From positions 1-47,013 of the forward strand of contig CANQQL010000003.1 in the NCBI GenBank assembly GCA_947625975.1: a DNA stretch of 47,013 nt, read 5' to 3'. Numbering within the stretch: position 1 is the first letter of the stretch; each line of letters opens with the position of its first letter. The notes below the pieces were generated by a model. It saw nothing but the letters and a program-made list of their open reading frames with translations, was not told the origin of the DNA and made no database searches. Of this stretch, positions 41,739 to 47,013 are shown piece after piece. Position numbers and translations under genes: made by a program. Source of the stretch: an uncultured Bacilli bacterium. Its GTDB lineage: Bacteria > Bacillota_I > Bacilli_A > RFN20 > CAG-826.

Positions 41739-43028
41739 ATGAAAGTAGGAATTATTGGGTTAAGCGAATTAGGAATTACAAATGTTGCATTACTTGCTAA
41801 TTTTGGTTATGAAATTATAGCATATGACTCTAATGCTTTTTGTGTATCATTACTAAGCAAAGGCATAAAAAGGTTTAAAGATGAGCGAATAAAAAAGATT
41901 ATTGATAATCACAGAGATACAATTCAATACACAACTAATATCTTAGATTTAACAGGGATTGAAGTTATAATAATTGCAATAGAATTAGAAGAAATTAATG
42001 GTAAATATAATTTAAATTCTTTTTATTTAACAATCGATGAAATAAAAAAGTTTTTTCATTGGAAAACTACGCTTATTATAAAAACTCCTTTACCGGTTGG
42101 TAGCTGTCAAATAATAGATAAGTATTTAAATCGAAATAGCAATAATTTTTCTATTGCCTATATTCCCACGTGTTGTATAAATAATAACTATTATGATGAT
42201 ATTTTTATGCCTACAAAGTTGGTAGTAGGAACATCAACTTCGCTAGCGCATATAACAGTTCGGTTATTATATGAAAAGTTTTTAATGCAAGAAGTATTGC
42301 TGTATTTTGTTTCGTTTGAAGAAGCAGAGCTTTATCGCGTGGCAAATAACTATCTGGAAGTTTTAATTACTTCTTATATTACGAACATGCATTGTCTATT
42401 TAATGATTTTAATTTAAATTTCAATAACTTAATTTCAAAAATCCAATTACCGAATATTGGTAAATTTGTGAACAAAGGCAATGGTAATAAATTAATTTGT
42501 GAATATAATAATTTAAAGTTCTTTTTAAAGAAAGATGTTAACCTTAATAAATCATTAGTAGAAGGTAATCAATACCTTGCGAAACAAATTGTGGAACAAT
42601 TGCCAAAAGATGCTTTAACTATTGGGATTTTGGGAATTAGTGATGCTTTTGAAGATGTTAGTATAATGGCTATAGAAATAATCTCTCAAATATTAACAAG
42701 TTTAAATTCAACAGTTTATATTTATGATAAAACAAATGAAGAAAACTTTAAAAAATTAATAGGGCCAAATAAAAAAATCAAATATGTTTTAGATGAAAAG
42801 AATTTGTTAAAAAAGACCAATATAATTTTAATACTTCATAAGAAAGAATCTTATAAAGAACTAAATGAAGAGTTTTATTTGAAATATGGACAAGATAATT
42901 TAGTTATTTATGATTTTGATGAGGTTTACAAATATAGTAATTGGTCAAGTGTAAAATTAATTAAAGTGAATAATCAAAGTAATTTAAAATACGAAGAACC
43001 TTCTATATATGAAAAAGCACCACAATAG
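41739..43028 (+). CDS. UDP-glucose/GDP-mannose dehydrogenase-family homolog with degenerate active site
   Basis: Collinear with TuaD/Ugd over its full length by eye, but GxGxxG is GLSELG, NPEFLREG is IPTCCINN, AEMIK is AELYR, and GGSCFPKD is not conserved (GNGNKLICEY). Confidence 0.75.
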   Translation: MKVGIIGLSELGITNVALLANFGYEIIAYDSNAFCVSLLSKGIKRFKDERIKKIIDNHRDTIQYTTNILDLTGIEVIIIAIELEEINGKYNLNSFYLTIDEIKKFFHWKTTLIIKTPLPVGSCQIIDKYLNRNSNNFSIAYIPTCCINNNYYDDIFMPTKLVVGTSTSLAHITVRLLYEKFLMQEVLLYFVSFEEAELYRVANNYLEVLITSYITNMHCLFNDFNLNFNNLISKIQLPNIGKFVNKGNGNKLICEYNNLKFFLKKDVNLNKSLVEGNQYLAKQIVEQLPKDALTIGILGISDAFEDVSIMAIEIISQILTSLNSTVYIYDKTNEENFKKLIGPNKKIKYVLDEKNLLKKTNIILILHKKESYKELNEEFYLKYGQDNLVIYDFDEVYKYSNWSSVKLIKVNNQSNLKYEEPSIYEKAPQ

Positions 43029-43038
43029 TGGTGCTGAT

Positions 43039-44052
43039 TTATTGTTGTTGGATTGAAGGATTTAAGTTTCTGGATGTTAGCCACATTATTCTGATACCAA
43101 GCATTACCATAAATAGCATTGTTGAGAATGATGGGAATATAAACCCTATAAGCGCTGATAAAATTGCTGGTGAAAGAGATGCGACACCGACAATCTTCAT
43201 AGCTTCAACAAATTTATAATCACGATAAGGATTATGTTTACCTCTGGTTATGATGAAGATCATTAAAACCATAAATAAAGATATAATGACATTAATTGCA
43301 GCGTAAATGCCGACTTGCGTAAACAAAGTTACTATTTTAGTGCTTTTATAGCCAACATCAATAAATTCTTTCCAATTGGAGAGAGAATGTTCGCCGGTAT
43401 ATGACGACATAACTTCTCCATTTTTAAAGCGGTCATATTTCATATAGCGTGTGGCAAATGGGGAGGACCAACTTTCAGCATTTTTGCTGTAAACGCAAAG
43501 AAAACATTCGGTTTTTCCAATAATTAAAAACGACGAAATTCCAATTGCAGTAATTTCTTGTGCTTGAATTTCACTAACTTTTTTATTAAAATCATCGCTA
43601 TTTAAATCTAAGGCAAGATAAACTCTTAATCGTTGAACTAATTTATCGCTGTAAGTACCATCTTCCTCGATGATGCGATCTGATCGCTCGTAAAAGAAGT
43701 ATTGGTAAGAATCAGGAGCATAAAAGTGTTCAGGATCATTGCTATTTGCCCAATTGTTATCGGGATCATTCATGGTAATGATTTTTGTTCCGTCTTCTTC
43801 TTTAATCTCGAATTTTATATTTTTTTCCTTCATAGTTTCAGAGAAATAGACTAATCCTTCATCTGCTCCATTGGCGTTACTACTAAGAATAGAAGAGCCT
43901 TTGACTGATGCAATCGTAACAATACTTGGAATCAATGCGACAATCATAGCAATGATAAATATAATGAATGACTCAATCCATTTTCTTTTTCGCCCTTCAA
44001 TAATTACACTATTATTGAATAAAGATTTAAGAACATATCTAAATGGTTTCAT
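43039..44052 (-). CDS. Membrane protein, possibly DUF1189/MalA-like (1 N-terminal TM, extracellular domain, 3 C-terminal TMs)
   Basis: Topology and C-terminal YKFVEAMKIVGVASLSPAIL; AGGGTG RBS supports ATG 44052; family call tentative. Confidence 0.55.
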   Translation of the reverse strand: MKPFRYVLKSLFNNSVIIEGRKRKWIESFIIFIIAMIVALIPSIVTIASVKGSSILSSNANGADEGLVYFSETMKEKNIKFEIKEEDGTKIITMNDPDNNWANSNDPEHFYAPDSYQYFFYERSDRIIEEDGTYSDKLVQRLRVYLALDLNSDDFNKKVSEIQAQEITAIGISSFLIIGKTECFLCVYSKNAESWSSPFATRYMKYDRFKNGEVMSSYTGEHSLSNWKEFIDVGYKSTKIVTLFTQVGIYAAINVIISLFMVLMIFIITRGKHNPYRDYKFVEAMKIVGVASLSPAILSALIGFIFPSFSTMLFMVMLGIRIMWLTSRNLNPSIQQQ

Positions 44053-44158
44053 TGCAAACATCACCCTTTTCAATGAATAATTATATAAGATATAATACTT
44101 AATTTCAATAAAATAAAAATTGACTATAAATTCAAAAGAATAAAATTTCTCAATCATT

Positions 44159-44188: not shown

Positions 44189-44812
44189 ATGAAAGTTAAT
44201 CCAAGTTACTTATTAATAGCGAAAGATATTGCTTTAAAAATAAGTAAAGGCATCTATAAAGAAAATGATAAAATAAAAGGAAGAACCTTATTAGCGGGTG
44301 AATATAATGTCTCTCCGGAAACTATCCGTAAAGCGATAAACATACTTGCGAATGAAAAAATAGTTTTAGTAAAGCAGGGTGTGGGAATTTTTGTAATATC
44401 CAGTGATACTGCTACAAAGTTTCTTTCCAAACTTGGCGATGAGGAAAATAGAAAAAAACAAATATCCGATTTAAATGATTTAATTGAGCAAAGAAACAAA
44501 CTTAATGAAGACATATTTAATCAATTAAATAAAATGTTAAAATCAGATAAATTAATAGCAGATTTGGATTTGGAGTTTAAAGAAGTAATAGTCGATGATG
44601 ACAGTTGGGTTATTAATCAGACAATTGGTGATGTCTATTTTTATAATTATACTGAAGCCACGATTGTCGCTATAATTAGAGGTAATCGTCTAATCGCTTC
44701 ACCCGGGCCGGACTTTACTTTTATTGCTCAAGATAAACTTATTATTGTTGGAAAAGATAAACTGTCTTATGATCGTGTTCTCACCTATTTAAAATATGGT
44801 GCTATGGAATAG
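44189..44812 (+). CDS. GntR-wHTH plus coiled coil plus RCK_C (TrkA_C) transcriptional regulator, BusR-like
   Basis: Y..IA.DIA..I..G.Y, LAGEYNVSPETIRKA, central heptad segment, C-terminal ATIVAIIRG....SPGPDF.F...DKL; 207 aa. Confidence 0.82.
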   Translation: MKVNPSYLLIAKDIALKISKGIYKENDKIKGRTLLAGEYNVSPETIRKAINILANEKIVLVKQGVGIFVISSDTATKFLSKLGDEENRKKQISDLNDLIEQRNKLNEDIFNQLNKMLKSDKLIADLDLEFKEVIVDDDSWVINQTIGDVYFYNYTEATIVAIIRGNRLIASPGPDFTFIAQDKLIIVGKDKLSYDRVLTYLKYGAME

Positions 44813-44888: not shown

Positions 44889-44916
44889 TAGACATTTATT
44901 TAAAAAACTTTATAAT
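44889..44916 (+). promoter_or_regulatory. sigmaA promoter for the SPT-like operon
   Basis: TAGACA-N16-TATAAT, then AAGGAG RBS. Confidence 0.55.
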
Positions 44917-44943
44917 AGTGTTTGAAAAAAGGAGATTTTACTT

Positions 44944-46128
44944 ATGGATTTATTTGATAAATGTAAACATATGGATAGAGTGGATTTTATTAAAAAAGAA
45001 GGCATTTATCCTTACTTTCAGGCTTTGTCAACGGGACAAGATGTACAAGTTGAGATGGCCGGTAGAAGTGTTGTGATGATAGGCTCGAATAATTACTTAG
45101 GCTTGACTTCTGACAAACGTGTAATTGATGCAGGCGTTGAGGCGTTAAAGAAATACGGATCTGGTTGTTCGGGATCAAGATTTTTAAATGGTACGTTAGA
45201 TTTGCATATACAACTTGAAAAGGAGTTGGCAGAATTTTTACATAAAGAAGCGGTAATGACTTTCTCGACCGGATTTCAGACTAATTTAGGAATAATTTCT
45301 GCGATTGCAGGATTAGGAGATTATATTGTTTGTGACAGAGAAAATCATGCATCTATTTATGATGGCTGTCGCTTAAGTTATGCGAAAATGCTCCGCTATA
45401 AACATGCGGATATGGAAGATTTAGAGAATGTTTTAAAGAGCATACCAAGCGATAAAGGAATCTTAATTGTTACAGATGGTGTTTTTTCCATGGGTGGAGA
45501 TATTGCAAAACTTCCGGAAATTGTTGCTTTGGCTCGCAAATATGGTGCAAGAGTTATGGTTGATGATGCCCATGGTTTAGGCGTGTTAGGAGAACATGGA
45601 AGAGGAACAGCGGAATATTATGATTTAGAAGATCAAGTTGATATTTATATGGGAACTTTCTCCAAATCATTAGCATCCCTTGGAGGCTATATGGCTGCCA
45701 AAAAAGAAGTTATCGAATATGTTAAACATAATTCACGTCCTTATATTTTCTCGGCATCTATTACTCCCGCATGTGCAGCTTGTGCTTTAGCAGCGTTAAG
45801 AATTATTAAAGAAGAACCTGATAGACCAAAAAAATTATTAGAGTTATCAGCCTATATGCGAACAGGTTTAAAGAAATTAGGTGTGCCAATTATTGATTCT
45901 AATACACCAATTATTCCAATCTATGTATATGATGATGTTAAGGCTTTTAAAGCTTGCCATTTATTATTGGAACGCGGTGTCTATGTTAATCCTGTTGTGT
46001 CTCCTGCAACACCAGAAGGTTTTGCACTTTTACGAACAAGTTATACTGCAACACATACTAAAGAACAATTAGACTATGCCATGAAGCAGATTAAAGATGT
46101 TCTGGTGGAATTAGAGGTAATTAAATAA
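44944..46128 (+). CDS. PLP-dependent alpha-oxoamine synthase, serine palmitoyltransferase (SPT)-type
   Basis: GIYPYF, GSNNYLGL, GSGCSGSRFLNGTLDLH, STGFQTNLG, NHASIYDG, DGVFSMGGD, DDAHG, PLP-lysine motif GTFSKS, IFSAS, RTSYTATH. Confidence 0.8.
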   Translation: MDLFDKCKHMDRVDFIKKEGIYPYFQALSTGQDVQVEMAGRSVVMIGSNNYLGLTSDKRVIDAGVEALKKYGSGCSGSRFLNGTLDLHIQLEKELAEFLHKEAVMTFSTGFQTNLGIISAIAGLGDYIVCDRENHASIYDGCRLSYAKMLRYKHADMEDLENVLKSIPSDKGILIVTDGVFSMGGDIAKLPEIVALARKYGARVMVDDAHGLGVLGEHGRGTAEYYDLEDQVDIYMGTFSKSLASLGGYMAAKKEVIEYVKHNSRPYIFSASITPACAACALAALRIIKEEPDRPKKLLELSAYMRTGLKKLGVPIIDSNTPIIPIYVYDDVKAFKACHLLLERGVYVNPVVSPATPEGFALLRTSYTATHTKEQLDYAMKQIKDVLVELEVIK

Positions 46129-46901
46129 TGCCGGTTGTGGTAATAACTGGTGTCAGTAGCGGAATTGGCAAAGATCTTGCTGAATTATTAATTAATTCCG
46201 GATTTACGGTATATGGTTTAGCACGTAGGGAAACAGATATTAATGGATTACATTATTTAAAATGTGATGTTACTAATTTAGAAAATATTAAAATTGTAAG
46301 AAATATTATTGCTGAAAAGGAAAAAACAATAGATGTTCTTATCAATAATGCCGGTATGGGCATAGCAGGTTCTATTTTAGATAGTAATTACGAAGATATC
46401 GAAGCGATATTTAAGACGAATGTTATGGGAGTAATTACGGTAACAAAAGAATTTGCTCCGTTACTTAGTGAAGGCGGGAAAATTATTAACATTGGATCGG
46501 TTGCCGGAGATTTGACAATACCTTATCAAGGATTTTATTCAATGAGTAAATCGGCGGTGGATAAATTTAGCGAATGTCTTTCCATTGAATTAAATGCCAA
46601 AAAAATAAAAGTTACCACAATATTACCCGGTGATACAAAAACTGAATTTACGAAAAGCCGAAAAACTGTAATTAAAGATGATCAAAATGGGAAAGCTTTA
46701 AAATCTATCAAAAAAATGGAAAAAGATGAACAAAATGGTGCTTCACCACGTAAAGTTTCTCGGGTCATTCTTAAAATAATAAAGAGAAAAAATCCGCCGG
46801 TTAGAGTTGCAGTTGGATTTTCTTATAAATTAATAATATTTCTACAAAGAATTTTACCAAGAAAATGGGTTTTAGGATTAATTAGAAGATTATATGCATA
46901 A
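46128..46901 (+). CDS. Classical SDR oxidoreductase, 3-ketodihydrosphingosine reductase-like
   Basis: TGVSSGIG, DVLINNAGMGI, IPYQGFYSMSK (YxxxK), PGDTKT.FT; TAATG-coupled to the SPT-like gene. Confidence 0.75.
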   Translation: MPVVVITGVSSGIGKDLAELLINSGFTVYGLARRETDINGLHYLKCDVTNLENIKIVRNIIAEKEKTIDVLINNAGMGIAGSILDSNYEDIEAIFKTNVMGVITVTKEFAPLLSEGGKIINIGSVAGDLTIPYQGFYSMSKSAVDKFSECLSIELNAKKIKVTTILPGDTKTEFTKSRKTVIKDDQNGKALKSIKKMEKDEQNGASPRKVSRVILKIIKRKNPPVRVAVGFSYKLIIFLQRILPRKWVLGLIRRLYA

Positions 46902-46927
46902 GGGTGTAATCACCCTTATTTTTTTTA
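46898..46927 (+). terminator. Intrinsic terminator closing the SPT-SDR operon
   Basis: ATAAGGGTG-TAAT-CACCCTTAT followed by a T run. Confidence 0.88.
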
Positions 46928-47013
46928 TTAAGCTTAATTAAAATTAAAACTTCAAAAATTCGAAGACGAAAAGCACAATAAAAAAAGTAACTTCAAAATA
47001 GAGATATATTGAG

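Follow-up and report, generated by a model that had tools for sequence, protein, structure and literature searches.

Our analyses point to a two-gene operon close to the end of a 47,013-nt stretch of DNA from an uncultured Bacilli bacterium (hereafter the window, which is the entire contig C3 of its genome; GenBank CANQQL010000003.1, assembly GCA_947625975.1) as a credible pair of serine palmitoyltransferase (SPT) and 3-ketosphinganine reductase (KDSR), in a phylum and in a fatty-acid-auxotroph setting not described for such pairs. Gene 1 encodes an alpha-oxoamine synthase (AOS) and gene 2 a short-chain dehydrogenase/reductase (SDR), the positions of which are collected in Table 1. We consider it very probable that the two enzymes make and reduce a long-chain alpha-amino ketone, and put the probability that the operon makes a sphinganine-type long-chain base from serine at about 0.6. 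Whether judged by its sequences, its active site, its trees or the logic of its operon, the predicted pair comes closest to the SPT (BT_0870 type) and the KDSR (BT_0972) of Bacteroides. A first-pass annotation of the window, made from its letters and its open reading frames (ORFs), had read the operon as SPT plus KDSR, and the work presented here supports that reading, with substrates and a product that we infer from sequence.

We suggest a pathway of two steps. On the evidence of homology, the product of gene 1 would bind L-serine as an external aldimine of pyridoxal 5'-phosphate (PLP) on K241, and would condense the serine with a long-chain acyl thioester to yield a 3-keto long-chain base (of the 3-ketosphinganine type) and CO2. 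The product of gene 2, judging by homology and by the conservation of the operon, would then reduce the 3-keto group to a 3-hydroxyl in an NADPH-dependent reaction, giving sphinganine. The acyl group would be supplied by fatty acid kinase, through acyl-phosphate and PlsX, as acyl-acyl carrier protein (acyl-ACP), and the base might remain free, or might be N-acylated or receive a head group through enzymes encoded elsewhere.

The synthase and its active site

In Pfam, gene 1 matches Aminotran_1_2 only. Its top NCBIfam model is NF047600 (SPT, CFB type; 541 bits), followed by TIGR01825 (BioF/Kbl subfamily, 421 bits), Kbl (416 bits), beta-proteobacterial SPT (414 bits) and BioF (TIGR00858; 390 bits, under its cut-off of 426). 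Among all PDB chains, the top match is the SPT of Sphingobacterium multivorum (SmSPT; 3A2B/8GUH) at 417 bits, ahead of the Sphingomonas SPTs (about 293–300), Thermus AOS (297), Kbl (286), cysteate-C-fatty acyltransferase (CFAT; 243 and 226), BioF (at most 221) and CqsA-type enzymes (110, with 208 bits on the CqsA-type NCBIfam model). Gene 1 and SmSPT align without gaps over 388 aa at 49% identity, and since a crystal structure exists at this identity we take the fold of gene 1 as settled.

The residues of SmSPT that contact PLP and serine have been defined by high-resolution structures (PMC10196870). Of 27 residues checked, 23 are identical in gene 1, and these comprise the full set of contacts to PLP and serine (N52, G80, S81, H138, S185, D210, H213, T241, S243 and K244 in SmSPT numbering); in the alignment, H138, D210 and H213 correspond to H135, D207 and H210 of gene 1, and K241 lies in GTFSKS. 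In particular, the residues that hold the carboxylate and hydroxyl of serine (N52, G80, S81, S243 and H138) are identical in gene 1 and invariant in its clade. The PLP and serine contacts, together with N117, which has been singled out as an SPT feature absent from CFAT (PMC13692747), are invariant in 110 Bacillota homologues that are 61–93% identical to gene 1. The four mismatches comprise F13, I15 and L19 of the N-terminal hydrophobic core and M271, which is Ile in all 110 homologues and which in SmSPT touches the substrate via its main-chain carbonyl only (PMC10196870).

The motifs give the same picture. We aligned SmSPT, the S. wittichii SPT (SwSPT), E. coli Kbl, E. coli BioF, Thermus AOS and Kbl paralogues linked to tdh in genomes of the host's class (SmSPT, SwSPT and Thermus AOS being taken from PDB alignments, and the E. 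coli Kbl, BioF and Fab proteins from K-12). At each discriminating block (GSNxYLGLT, GSRFLNGT, FSTGFQxNLG, GTFSKS, FSAS and VNPVVSPATP...LLRTS) the clade of gene 1 has the SPT form, as do SmSPT and SwSPT, and GIYPYF, GSRFLNGTLDLH, STGFQTNLG and GTFSKS are all found in gene 1 itself. The Kbl forms ((S/A)VR.I.G and GTL(S/G)KA) occur in E. coli Kbl, Thermus AOS and the tdh-linked paralogues and not in gene 1; the motifs of E. coli BioF differ again (GSGHVSGY, VTFGKG) and are likewise not found in it.

For the tree, homologues were sought among 1.84 billion representative proteins, and the full-length matches were analysed together with the references by FastTree and then by IQ-TREE (LG+C20); the taxa did not include CFAT, which was separated by score (243 bits) instead. 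The Bacillota clade of gene 1 is supported at 99/98 and is nested in a 96/96 clade, the SPT superclade, with the SmSPT lineage and the NF047599-positive SPT lineage of S. wittichii. E. coli Kbl, Thermus AOS and four tdh-linked paralogues form a separate clade (99/91), with BioF as the outgroup. These paralogues come from carriers of the operon, many of which have a second AOS (340–415 bits on NF047600): it lies directly after a Zn-type threonine dehydrogenase (Tdh) in genomes G264, G046, G132 and G107, the last from the host's own family, and in G228 it precedes a threonine dehydrogenase of the extended-SDR type (314 aa). Where linked to tdh, the second AOS clusters with E. coli Kbl.

These results bear on three statements of the first-pass annotation. 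Its claim that GSRxLNGT and GTFSKS tell SPT from Kbl and BioF is borne out by the motif alignment; a clustering of gene 1 with BioF or Kbl, which it had named as the contrary case, was looked for in the tree and is not seen, gene 1 lying in the SPT superclade; and the vague automated label that it foresaw is indeed what close homologues carry at NCBI ('aminotransferase class I/II-fold PLP-dependent enzyme').

The reductase and the conserved gene pair

Gene 2 is a classical SDR, with TGxxxGxG present as TGVSSGIG, with Ser124 and Y137xxxK141 (YSMSK), and with a basic pair RR (ARRE) after beta-2, and these features align with those of BT_0972, the experimentally active 3-ketosphinganine reductase of B. 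thetaiotaomicron (PMC9278070). Among NCBIfam models, NF049977 (KdsR) fits gene 2 best, at 225 bits and over the full length, followed by PRK06179 (183 bits); the best PDB match reaches just 78 bits, so that no close structure is at hand. The sequence of BT_0972 was taken from supplementary alignments (PMC9278070), and its recovery was checked by its score on NF049977 (494 bits). Gene 2 is 43% identical to it over 236 aa (E = 3e-60), and BT_0972 used as a query on the host genome returns gene 2 at 179 bits with a runner-up at 46.6 bits. The resemblance to BT_0972, proposed in the first-pass annotation, thus stands, with all five of the motifs quoted there in common; in gene 2 they read DVLINNAGMGIAG, IPYQGFYSMSK, PGDTKTEFTKSR, EKDEQNGASPRK and RKNPPVRVAVG.

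In an SDR tree with limited sampling of other PRK06179-like families, a single clade (SH-aLRT 98) unites BT_0972 with every synthase-linked SDR of Bacillota. Human FVT1, yeast TSC10 and E. coli FabG lie outside this clade, as do BT_2380, BT_1433 and BT_3771, which are B. thetaiotaomicron SDRs without KDSR activity (PMC9278070).

The two genes also travel together. Our survey covered 299 evenly sampled genomes of the phylum, every one in the host's class (a class that corresponds to GTDB Bacilli and in our collection also includes TGA-recoding mollicute genomes). An SPT-type synthase (477–586 bits) is present in 31 of them; a KdsR-like SDR (181–271 bits) is its immediate neighbour in every one of the 31 carriers, in the order synthase then SDR in 30. 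We also compared 80 loci from species-level genomes, most of them Clostridia metagenome-assembled genomes (MAGs) of gut origin (rabbit, ruminant, mouse and human); in about half, the synthase adjoins a homologous SDR, in either order. When the ORFs within about 8 kb were clustered for 34 loci, synthase and SDR were the sole genes conserved throughout, and no ACP, acyl-CoA synthetase (ACS), head-group or N-acylation gene was conserved beside the pair. The operon is patchily distributed: of about 22 genomes sampled from the host's own family, 2 carry it, against 19 of at least 22 in family f5. The f5 carriers include several complete genomes in one contig (G085, G132, G235 and G264), which may be cultured strains akin to Acholeplasma.

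Relatives of the operon extend in several directions. The nearest public loci, in which gene 1 is 92–93% identical, lie in MAGs labelled Erysipelotrichales, and Acholeplasmatales MAGs carry operon homologues as well (L033, L053). In P0122, the nearest outgroup lineage (54% identity), there is likewise an overlapping SDR, and a 151-aa GNAT acetyltransferase comes after the pair; next to P0121, on its downstream side, stands a 390-aa protein whose GNAT matches are faint. Both of these downstream proteins (loci L147, 6001–8462, and L148, 1661–4244) are possible N-acyltransferase partners. Two further loci were observed. In G232 (C15:137275–138186; L128), an SPT-like gene matches positions 6–309 of the model only, has an in-frame TAG and has the SDR upstream, and may be a decaying copy. 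A 3.5-kb contig in a 1.0-Mb MAG labelled uncultured Muribaculaceae (L014, in G001) carries a Bacillota-type pair, and its label or binning is doubtful.

Acyl supply and alternative chemistries

The host is a gut bacterium with a small genome, represented by metagenomes only, and it is reasonable to take it as a Gram-positive Bacillota. In its genome (1.27 Mb in 66 contigs, 89% complete) tblastn found no FabH, FabD, FabF, Tdh, BioB or BioD, and no ketoacyl-synthase domain was found there or in G002 (its nearest relative), G003 and G005; FabF is present in other carriers. No AMP-binding enzyme was found in the host genome either, so that AMP-binding synthetases for acyl-CoA or acyl-ACP are missing from it as well. 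The genome does encode FakA/YloV (648 bits) and PlsX (309 bits), both over cut-off, as well as three DegV/FakB proteins and a single, divergent AcpP-like ACP (C20:10202–10456). The order fakA(yloV)-recG-plsX-rnc is found at C18:19331–24081, with fabD-fabG-acpA missing from between plsX and rnc, where they stand in B. subtilis; together with the lack of FabH, FabF and FabD, this looks like a clean loss of type II fatty-acid synthesis (FASII).

In the Fak/PlsX route of Firmicutes, an imported fatty acid is converted to acyl-phosphate and then to acyl-ACP. Considering that FASII and an AMP-binding synthetase are absent and that Fak, PlsX and ACP are kept, acyl-ACP is the sole evident long-chain thioester, and on gene content the most likely acyl donor is a scavenged host or dietary fatty acid presented as acyl-ACP, which would make the SPT acyl-ACP-dependent. 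Use of acyl-ACP is known for Caulobacter-type Spt (PMC9386255) and for CFAT (PMC13692747). Another small carrier protein, with a PP-binding match of 39 bits, is encoded at C24:14097–14321, inside an apparent polysaccharide/sugar-modification cluster.

Several findings weigh against the making of sphinganine from serine by this pair, or limit how firmly it may be argued. Both proteins score below the equivalog cut-offs of their best models, gene 1 at 541 bits against 640 on NF047600, and gene 2 at 225 against 400 on NF049977. SmSPT, a proven enzyme, reaches 733 bits on NF047600; P0127 scores 625 despite belonging to the SmSPT clade, which indicates that the cut-off is strict (P0126 scores 537), and formal equivalog membership of gene 1 is still not reached. 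Moreover, 19 of 20 superclade representatives scanned were best on NF047600, all of them under its cut-off, so that this model indicates the superclade and not the substrate; the one exception, P0257, is a beta-proteobacterial-type SPT above the cut-off of its own model. The sister of the Bacillota clade inside the superclade is not resolved by the tree, and a Bacteroidota origin of the Bacillota genes can therefore not be stated. On the side of the reductase, BT_0972-like SDRs occur without the synthase in 13 sampled genomes and some unlinked Bacilli SDRs fall inside the BT_0972 clade, so that the subfamily is slightly broader than the pathway and not exclusive to it. Finally, since the host genome is 89% complete, the gene absences reported above are provisional.

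The SPT superclade, in addition, holds many uncharacterised and multidomain lineages. Fusions within it (P0129, P0133, P0132, P0134, P0137, P0172 and P0194) include FemAB-like/GNAT–AOS proteins (one with a C-terminal PilZ domain), AOS–STAS and AOS–DUF1571, and others join an acyl carrier protein and ketosynthase to the AOS (ACP-KS-...-AOS) or have the form thioesterase-ACP-luciferase-like-AOS or adenylation-ACP-luciferase-like-AOS. This variety is a warning that the chemistry inside the superclade is diverse.

The lack of a ceramide synthase candidate is a further point of this kind. We take the bacterial ceramide synthase (bCerS) to be a member of PF04339 (FemAB_like), to which the FemAB-like–AOS fusions also point; this family is absent from 12 carriers, with a positive Caulobacter control. 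PF13444 has no match in 8 carriers, nor in the Caulobacter control, and is thus silent on bCerS. Given that no ceramide synthase of a known type was found, the pathway would end in free long-chain bases, or in lipids completed by an N-acyltransferase yet to be discovered.

The alternative that survives best keeps the chemistry and changes the substrates: Ala, Gly, homoserine or another small amino acid, or an unusual acyl group, would be used, and the product would be, for example, a 1-deoxy-sphinganine-like base. The sub-cut-off scores of both proteins would fit this proposal, as would the position of the clade, which stands apart from the two SPT lineages with characterised members and has no resolved sister. 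Characterised SPTs do take Ala, Gly and homoserine at low efficiency (PMC10196870), and gene 1 differs from SmSPT at F13, I15 and L19 and, like all 110 homologues, has Ile for M271. However, the contact made by M271 is through the main chain only, and the residues that hold the hydroxyl and carboxylate of serine are invariant in the clade; we therefore regard other substrates as unlikely, though as the strongest competitor to serine.

Considerably less probable, in our judgement, is that the output of the pair is no membrane lipid but a secondary metabolite or lipid-like signal built from medium-chain donors, in the style of the CqsA/LqsA alpha-hydroxyketones or of an aminoketone linked to polyketide synthases (PKS). 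The patchy occurrence within the host's family, the stand-alone two-gene unit without head-group or N-acylation genes, and the fusions to PKS, non-ribosomal peptide synthetase-like and regulatory domains in the superclade are what one might expect of such a system; yet CqsA-type enzymes are distant by both PDB and NCBIfam scores, gene 2 is nearest to a proven lipid reductase, and gene 1 is strongly conserved across orders (61–93% identity) with its active site invariant.

Two readings that would take the pair out of sphingoid-base synthesis altogether appear to us very improbable. One of them casts gene 1 as the CFAT and gene 2 as the dehydrocapnine reductase of a sulfonolipid (capnine) pathway; such a pathway shares the two-step logic of a CFAT followed by an SDR reductase, and CFATs use acyl-ACP (PMC13692747), the sole evident donor here, but SPT reaches 417 bits where the solved CFATs give 243 and 226, and CFATs form a separate branch with a remodelled side-chain pocket lacking the Asn117 feature (PMC13692747), whereas the clade of gene 1 keeps Asn117 and the SPT-type pocket residues without exception (a comparison with CFAT made by scores and Asn117). 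Equally improbable is a role in small-molecule metabolism, as Kbl with an SDR-type threonine dehydrogenase or with gene 1 as BioF: although these are the commonest members of the family, Kbl is typically paired with a dehydrogenase and the models still give 390–416 bits, gene 1 lies outside the Kbl/Thermus AOS clade and away from BioF, its motifs are SPT-type, real Kbl paralogues beside Tdh coexist with the pair (also in the same-family genome G107), bioB, bioD and tdh are not detectable in the host genome, and gene 2 is a 257-aa classical SDR with 43% identity to KDSR, whereas the Tdh-type protein of G228 is a 314-aa extended SDR.

Operon layout, related systems and biological meaning

The operon ends 112 bases short of the contig end. 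Its two genes share one base at the junction of stop and start (TAATG), and the self-contained unit of promoter, overlap and terminator described in the first-pass annotation was found in place (Table 1). The promoter proposed there likewise holds up, since the -35 block TATAGACA and the -10 of the operon promoter are kept in the two closest relatives (L009 and L010), with the spacer diverged further upstream, though the promoter scan as a whole is not above chance (12 sites against 14.6 expected in this AT-rich DNA of 30% G+C). The folding energy of the terminator (-12.4 kcal/mol; z = -4.70) was equalled by none of 200 shuffles. The statement that the operon contains no ACP or ceramide synthase gene agrees with the survey of neighbours described above.

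Table 1. Positions of the operon, its expression signals and the genes upstream of it in the window
Feature	Position	Strand	Remarks
Gene 1 (ORF1), SPT-type alpha-oxoamine synthase	44944..46128	+	394 aa; PLP lysine K241 in GTFSKS
Gene 2 (ORF2), classical NADP(H)-type SDR of the BT_0972 subfamily	46128..46901	+	257 aa; translationally coupled to gene 1
Sigma-70-type promoter, TAGACA-16 nt-TATAAT	44889..44916	+	top consensus match of the region, 11/12
Ribosome-binding site AAAGGAGA	44929..44936	+	7 nt 5' of the gene 1 ATG; invariant in L009 and L010
Intrinsic terminator	46898..46929 (hairpin 46898–46919)	+	9-bp stem AUAAGGGUG / CACCCUUAU, 4-nt loop, T-run; from terminator scan
Regulator, GntR winged helix-turn-helix plus TrkA_C (RCK_C)	44189–44812	+	207 aa; directly upstream of the operon
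Predicted membrane protein	43039–44157	-	372 aa; no Pfam or NCBIfam match
UDP-glucose/GDP-mannose dehydrogenase homologue	41739–43028	+	429 aa

In the nearest public loci, synteny extends upstream through yfhO, a 114-aa ORF, a Ugd-like gene, a membrane protein and the GntR–TrkA_C regulator. This regulator was rejected as a member of the unit, its position being kept in the closest relatives only, and so was a 7-nt inverted repeat (TAAATGT...ACATTTA) over the -35, which is present here and not conserved in L009 and L010. The UDP-glucose/GDP-mannose dehydrogenase homologue, conserved in relative L007, matches chiefly the N-terminal NAD domain (54 bits) and scores 104 bits against the NDP-sugar dehydrogenase cut-off of 190, and may be a degenerate or repurposed enzyme. 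On the 3' side of the operon in L007 (8105–12547) lie a 737-aa protein, in which a membrane domain of the TMEM164 family is fused to an ABC ATPase, and a 730-aa multi-transmembrane ABC-2-like permease; in the host genome the two are found at C27:9828–13725, behind about 3.5 kb that include an insertion sequence-like 403-aa ORF. We rejected this fusion and the 12-transmembrane permease as pathway partners, because they are conserved in the three closest loci only and here stand on another contig.

Compared with the SPTs of the CFB type (SmSPT, 3A2B/8GUH; BT_0870; NF047600), gene 1 is alike in length, in fold class and in all PLP and serine contacts, and has in common with them GSRFLNGT, FSTGFQxNLG, GTFSKSLASL, FSAS and VNPVVSPAxP, with Val and not Arg before the PATP loop. 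It differs in belonging to a separate, well-supported Bacillota clade with Ile for M271 and a changed N-terminal core, in standing in an operon with its reductase in Bacillota genomes, and in having a monoderm host without FASII or acyl-CoA synthetase, in which the donor is probably acyl-ACP and not acyl-CoA. Gene 2 shares with BT_0972/KdsR the blocks TGxSSGxG, DVLINNAGMGI, IPYQGFYSxSK, PGD..T.FT, EK.E.NG..PRK and RKNPP.R..VG, the same catalytic Ser/Tyr/Lys, the basic pair after beta-2 and a hydrophobic C-terminal tail; it is 12 residues shorter and scores 225 against 494 bits on NF049977. Whereas gene 2 is coupled to its synthase, BT_0972 had to be located by homology search (PMC9278070).

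The proteobacterial SPTs (Sphingomonas 2JG2 and 2X8U; Caulobacter Spt) are in the same superclade as gene 1 and share with it GSRxLNGT, GTFSKS and the PATP loop, and an acyl-ACP donor is plausible in both, but gene 1 scores only about 300 bits against them. The Spt of Caulobacter and Rhodobacteria has a dedicated ACP and acyl-CoA synthetase (PMC9386255). Unlike the Caulobacter type, gene 1 has neither a dedicated ACP nor an ACS adjoining it, and no FemAB-like protein accompanies it; unlike the proteobacterial route, reduction would be expected here at the stage of the free base, as in Bacteroides. Kbl–Tdh operons also combine an alpha-oxoamine synthase with a dehydrogenase, and differ in synthase clade, in motifs and in dehydrogenase class.

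Sphingolipid synthesis in the gut has been credited to Gram-negative Bacteroidota (PMC12029090, PMC10865984, PMC10626005). The literature searched yielded no account of SPT or KDSR genes from Firmicutes/Bacillota, which does not show that none exists. The one other relevant entry is a line in a review, 'Mycoplasma spp.: sphingophospholipid', with Olsen and Jantzen (2001) given as its source. Since homologues of the operon occur in Acholeplasmatales MAGs, it may be that this operon is the genetic basis of that old 'Mycoplasma' (Acholeplasma) report. The organism behind the entry we presume to be Acholeplasma axanthum.

A broader proposal, which we put forward tentatively and at slightly less than even odds, is that many, mostly uncultured gut Bacillota (Erysipelotrichales, Acholeplasmatales, other Bacilli, and Christensenellales- or Caccovivens-type Clostridia) make sphingoid bases, the auxotrophs among them from scavenged fatty acids via acyl-ACP, with no ceramide synthase of a known type, and so constitute a second gut source of host-active sphingolipids, independent of Bacteroidota. 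Bacterial gut sphingolipids enter host ceramide metabolism and tune immunity. If the operon works as read here, a second phylum, often dominant in the gut, would supply sphingoid bases, and metagenomic estimates of sphingolipid capacity that count only Bacteroidota spt genes would be too low; both genes are hidden by their automated labels ('aminotransferase class I/II' and 'SDR family oxidoreductase'). Further, that a streamlined auxotroph should spend scavenged fatty acids on a sphingoid base would suggest an important role for that base in the membrane, in the spore or in interaction with the host.

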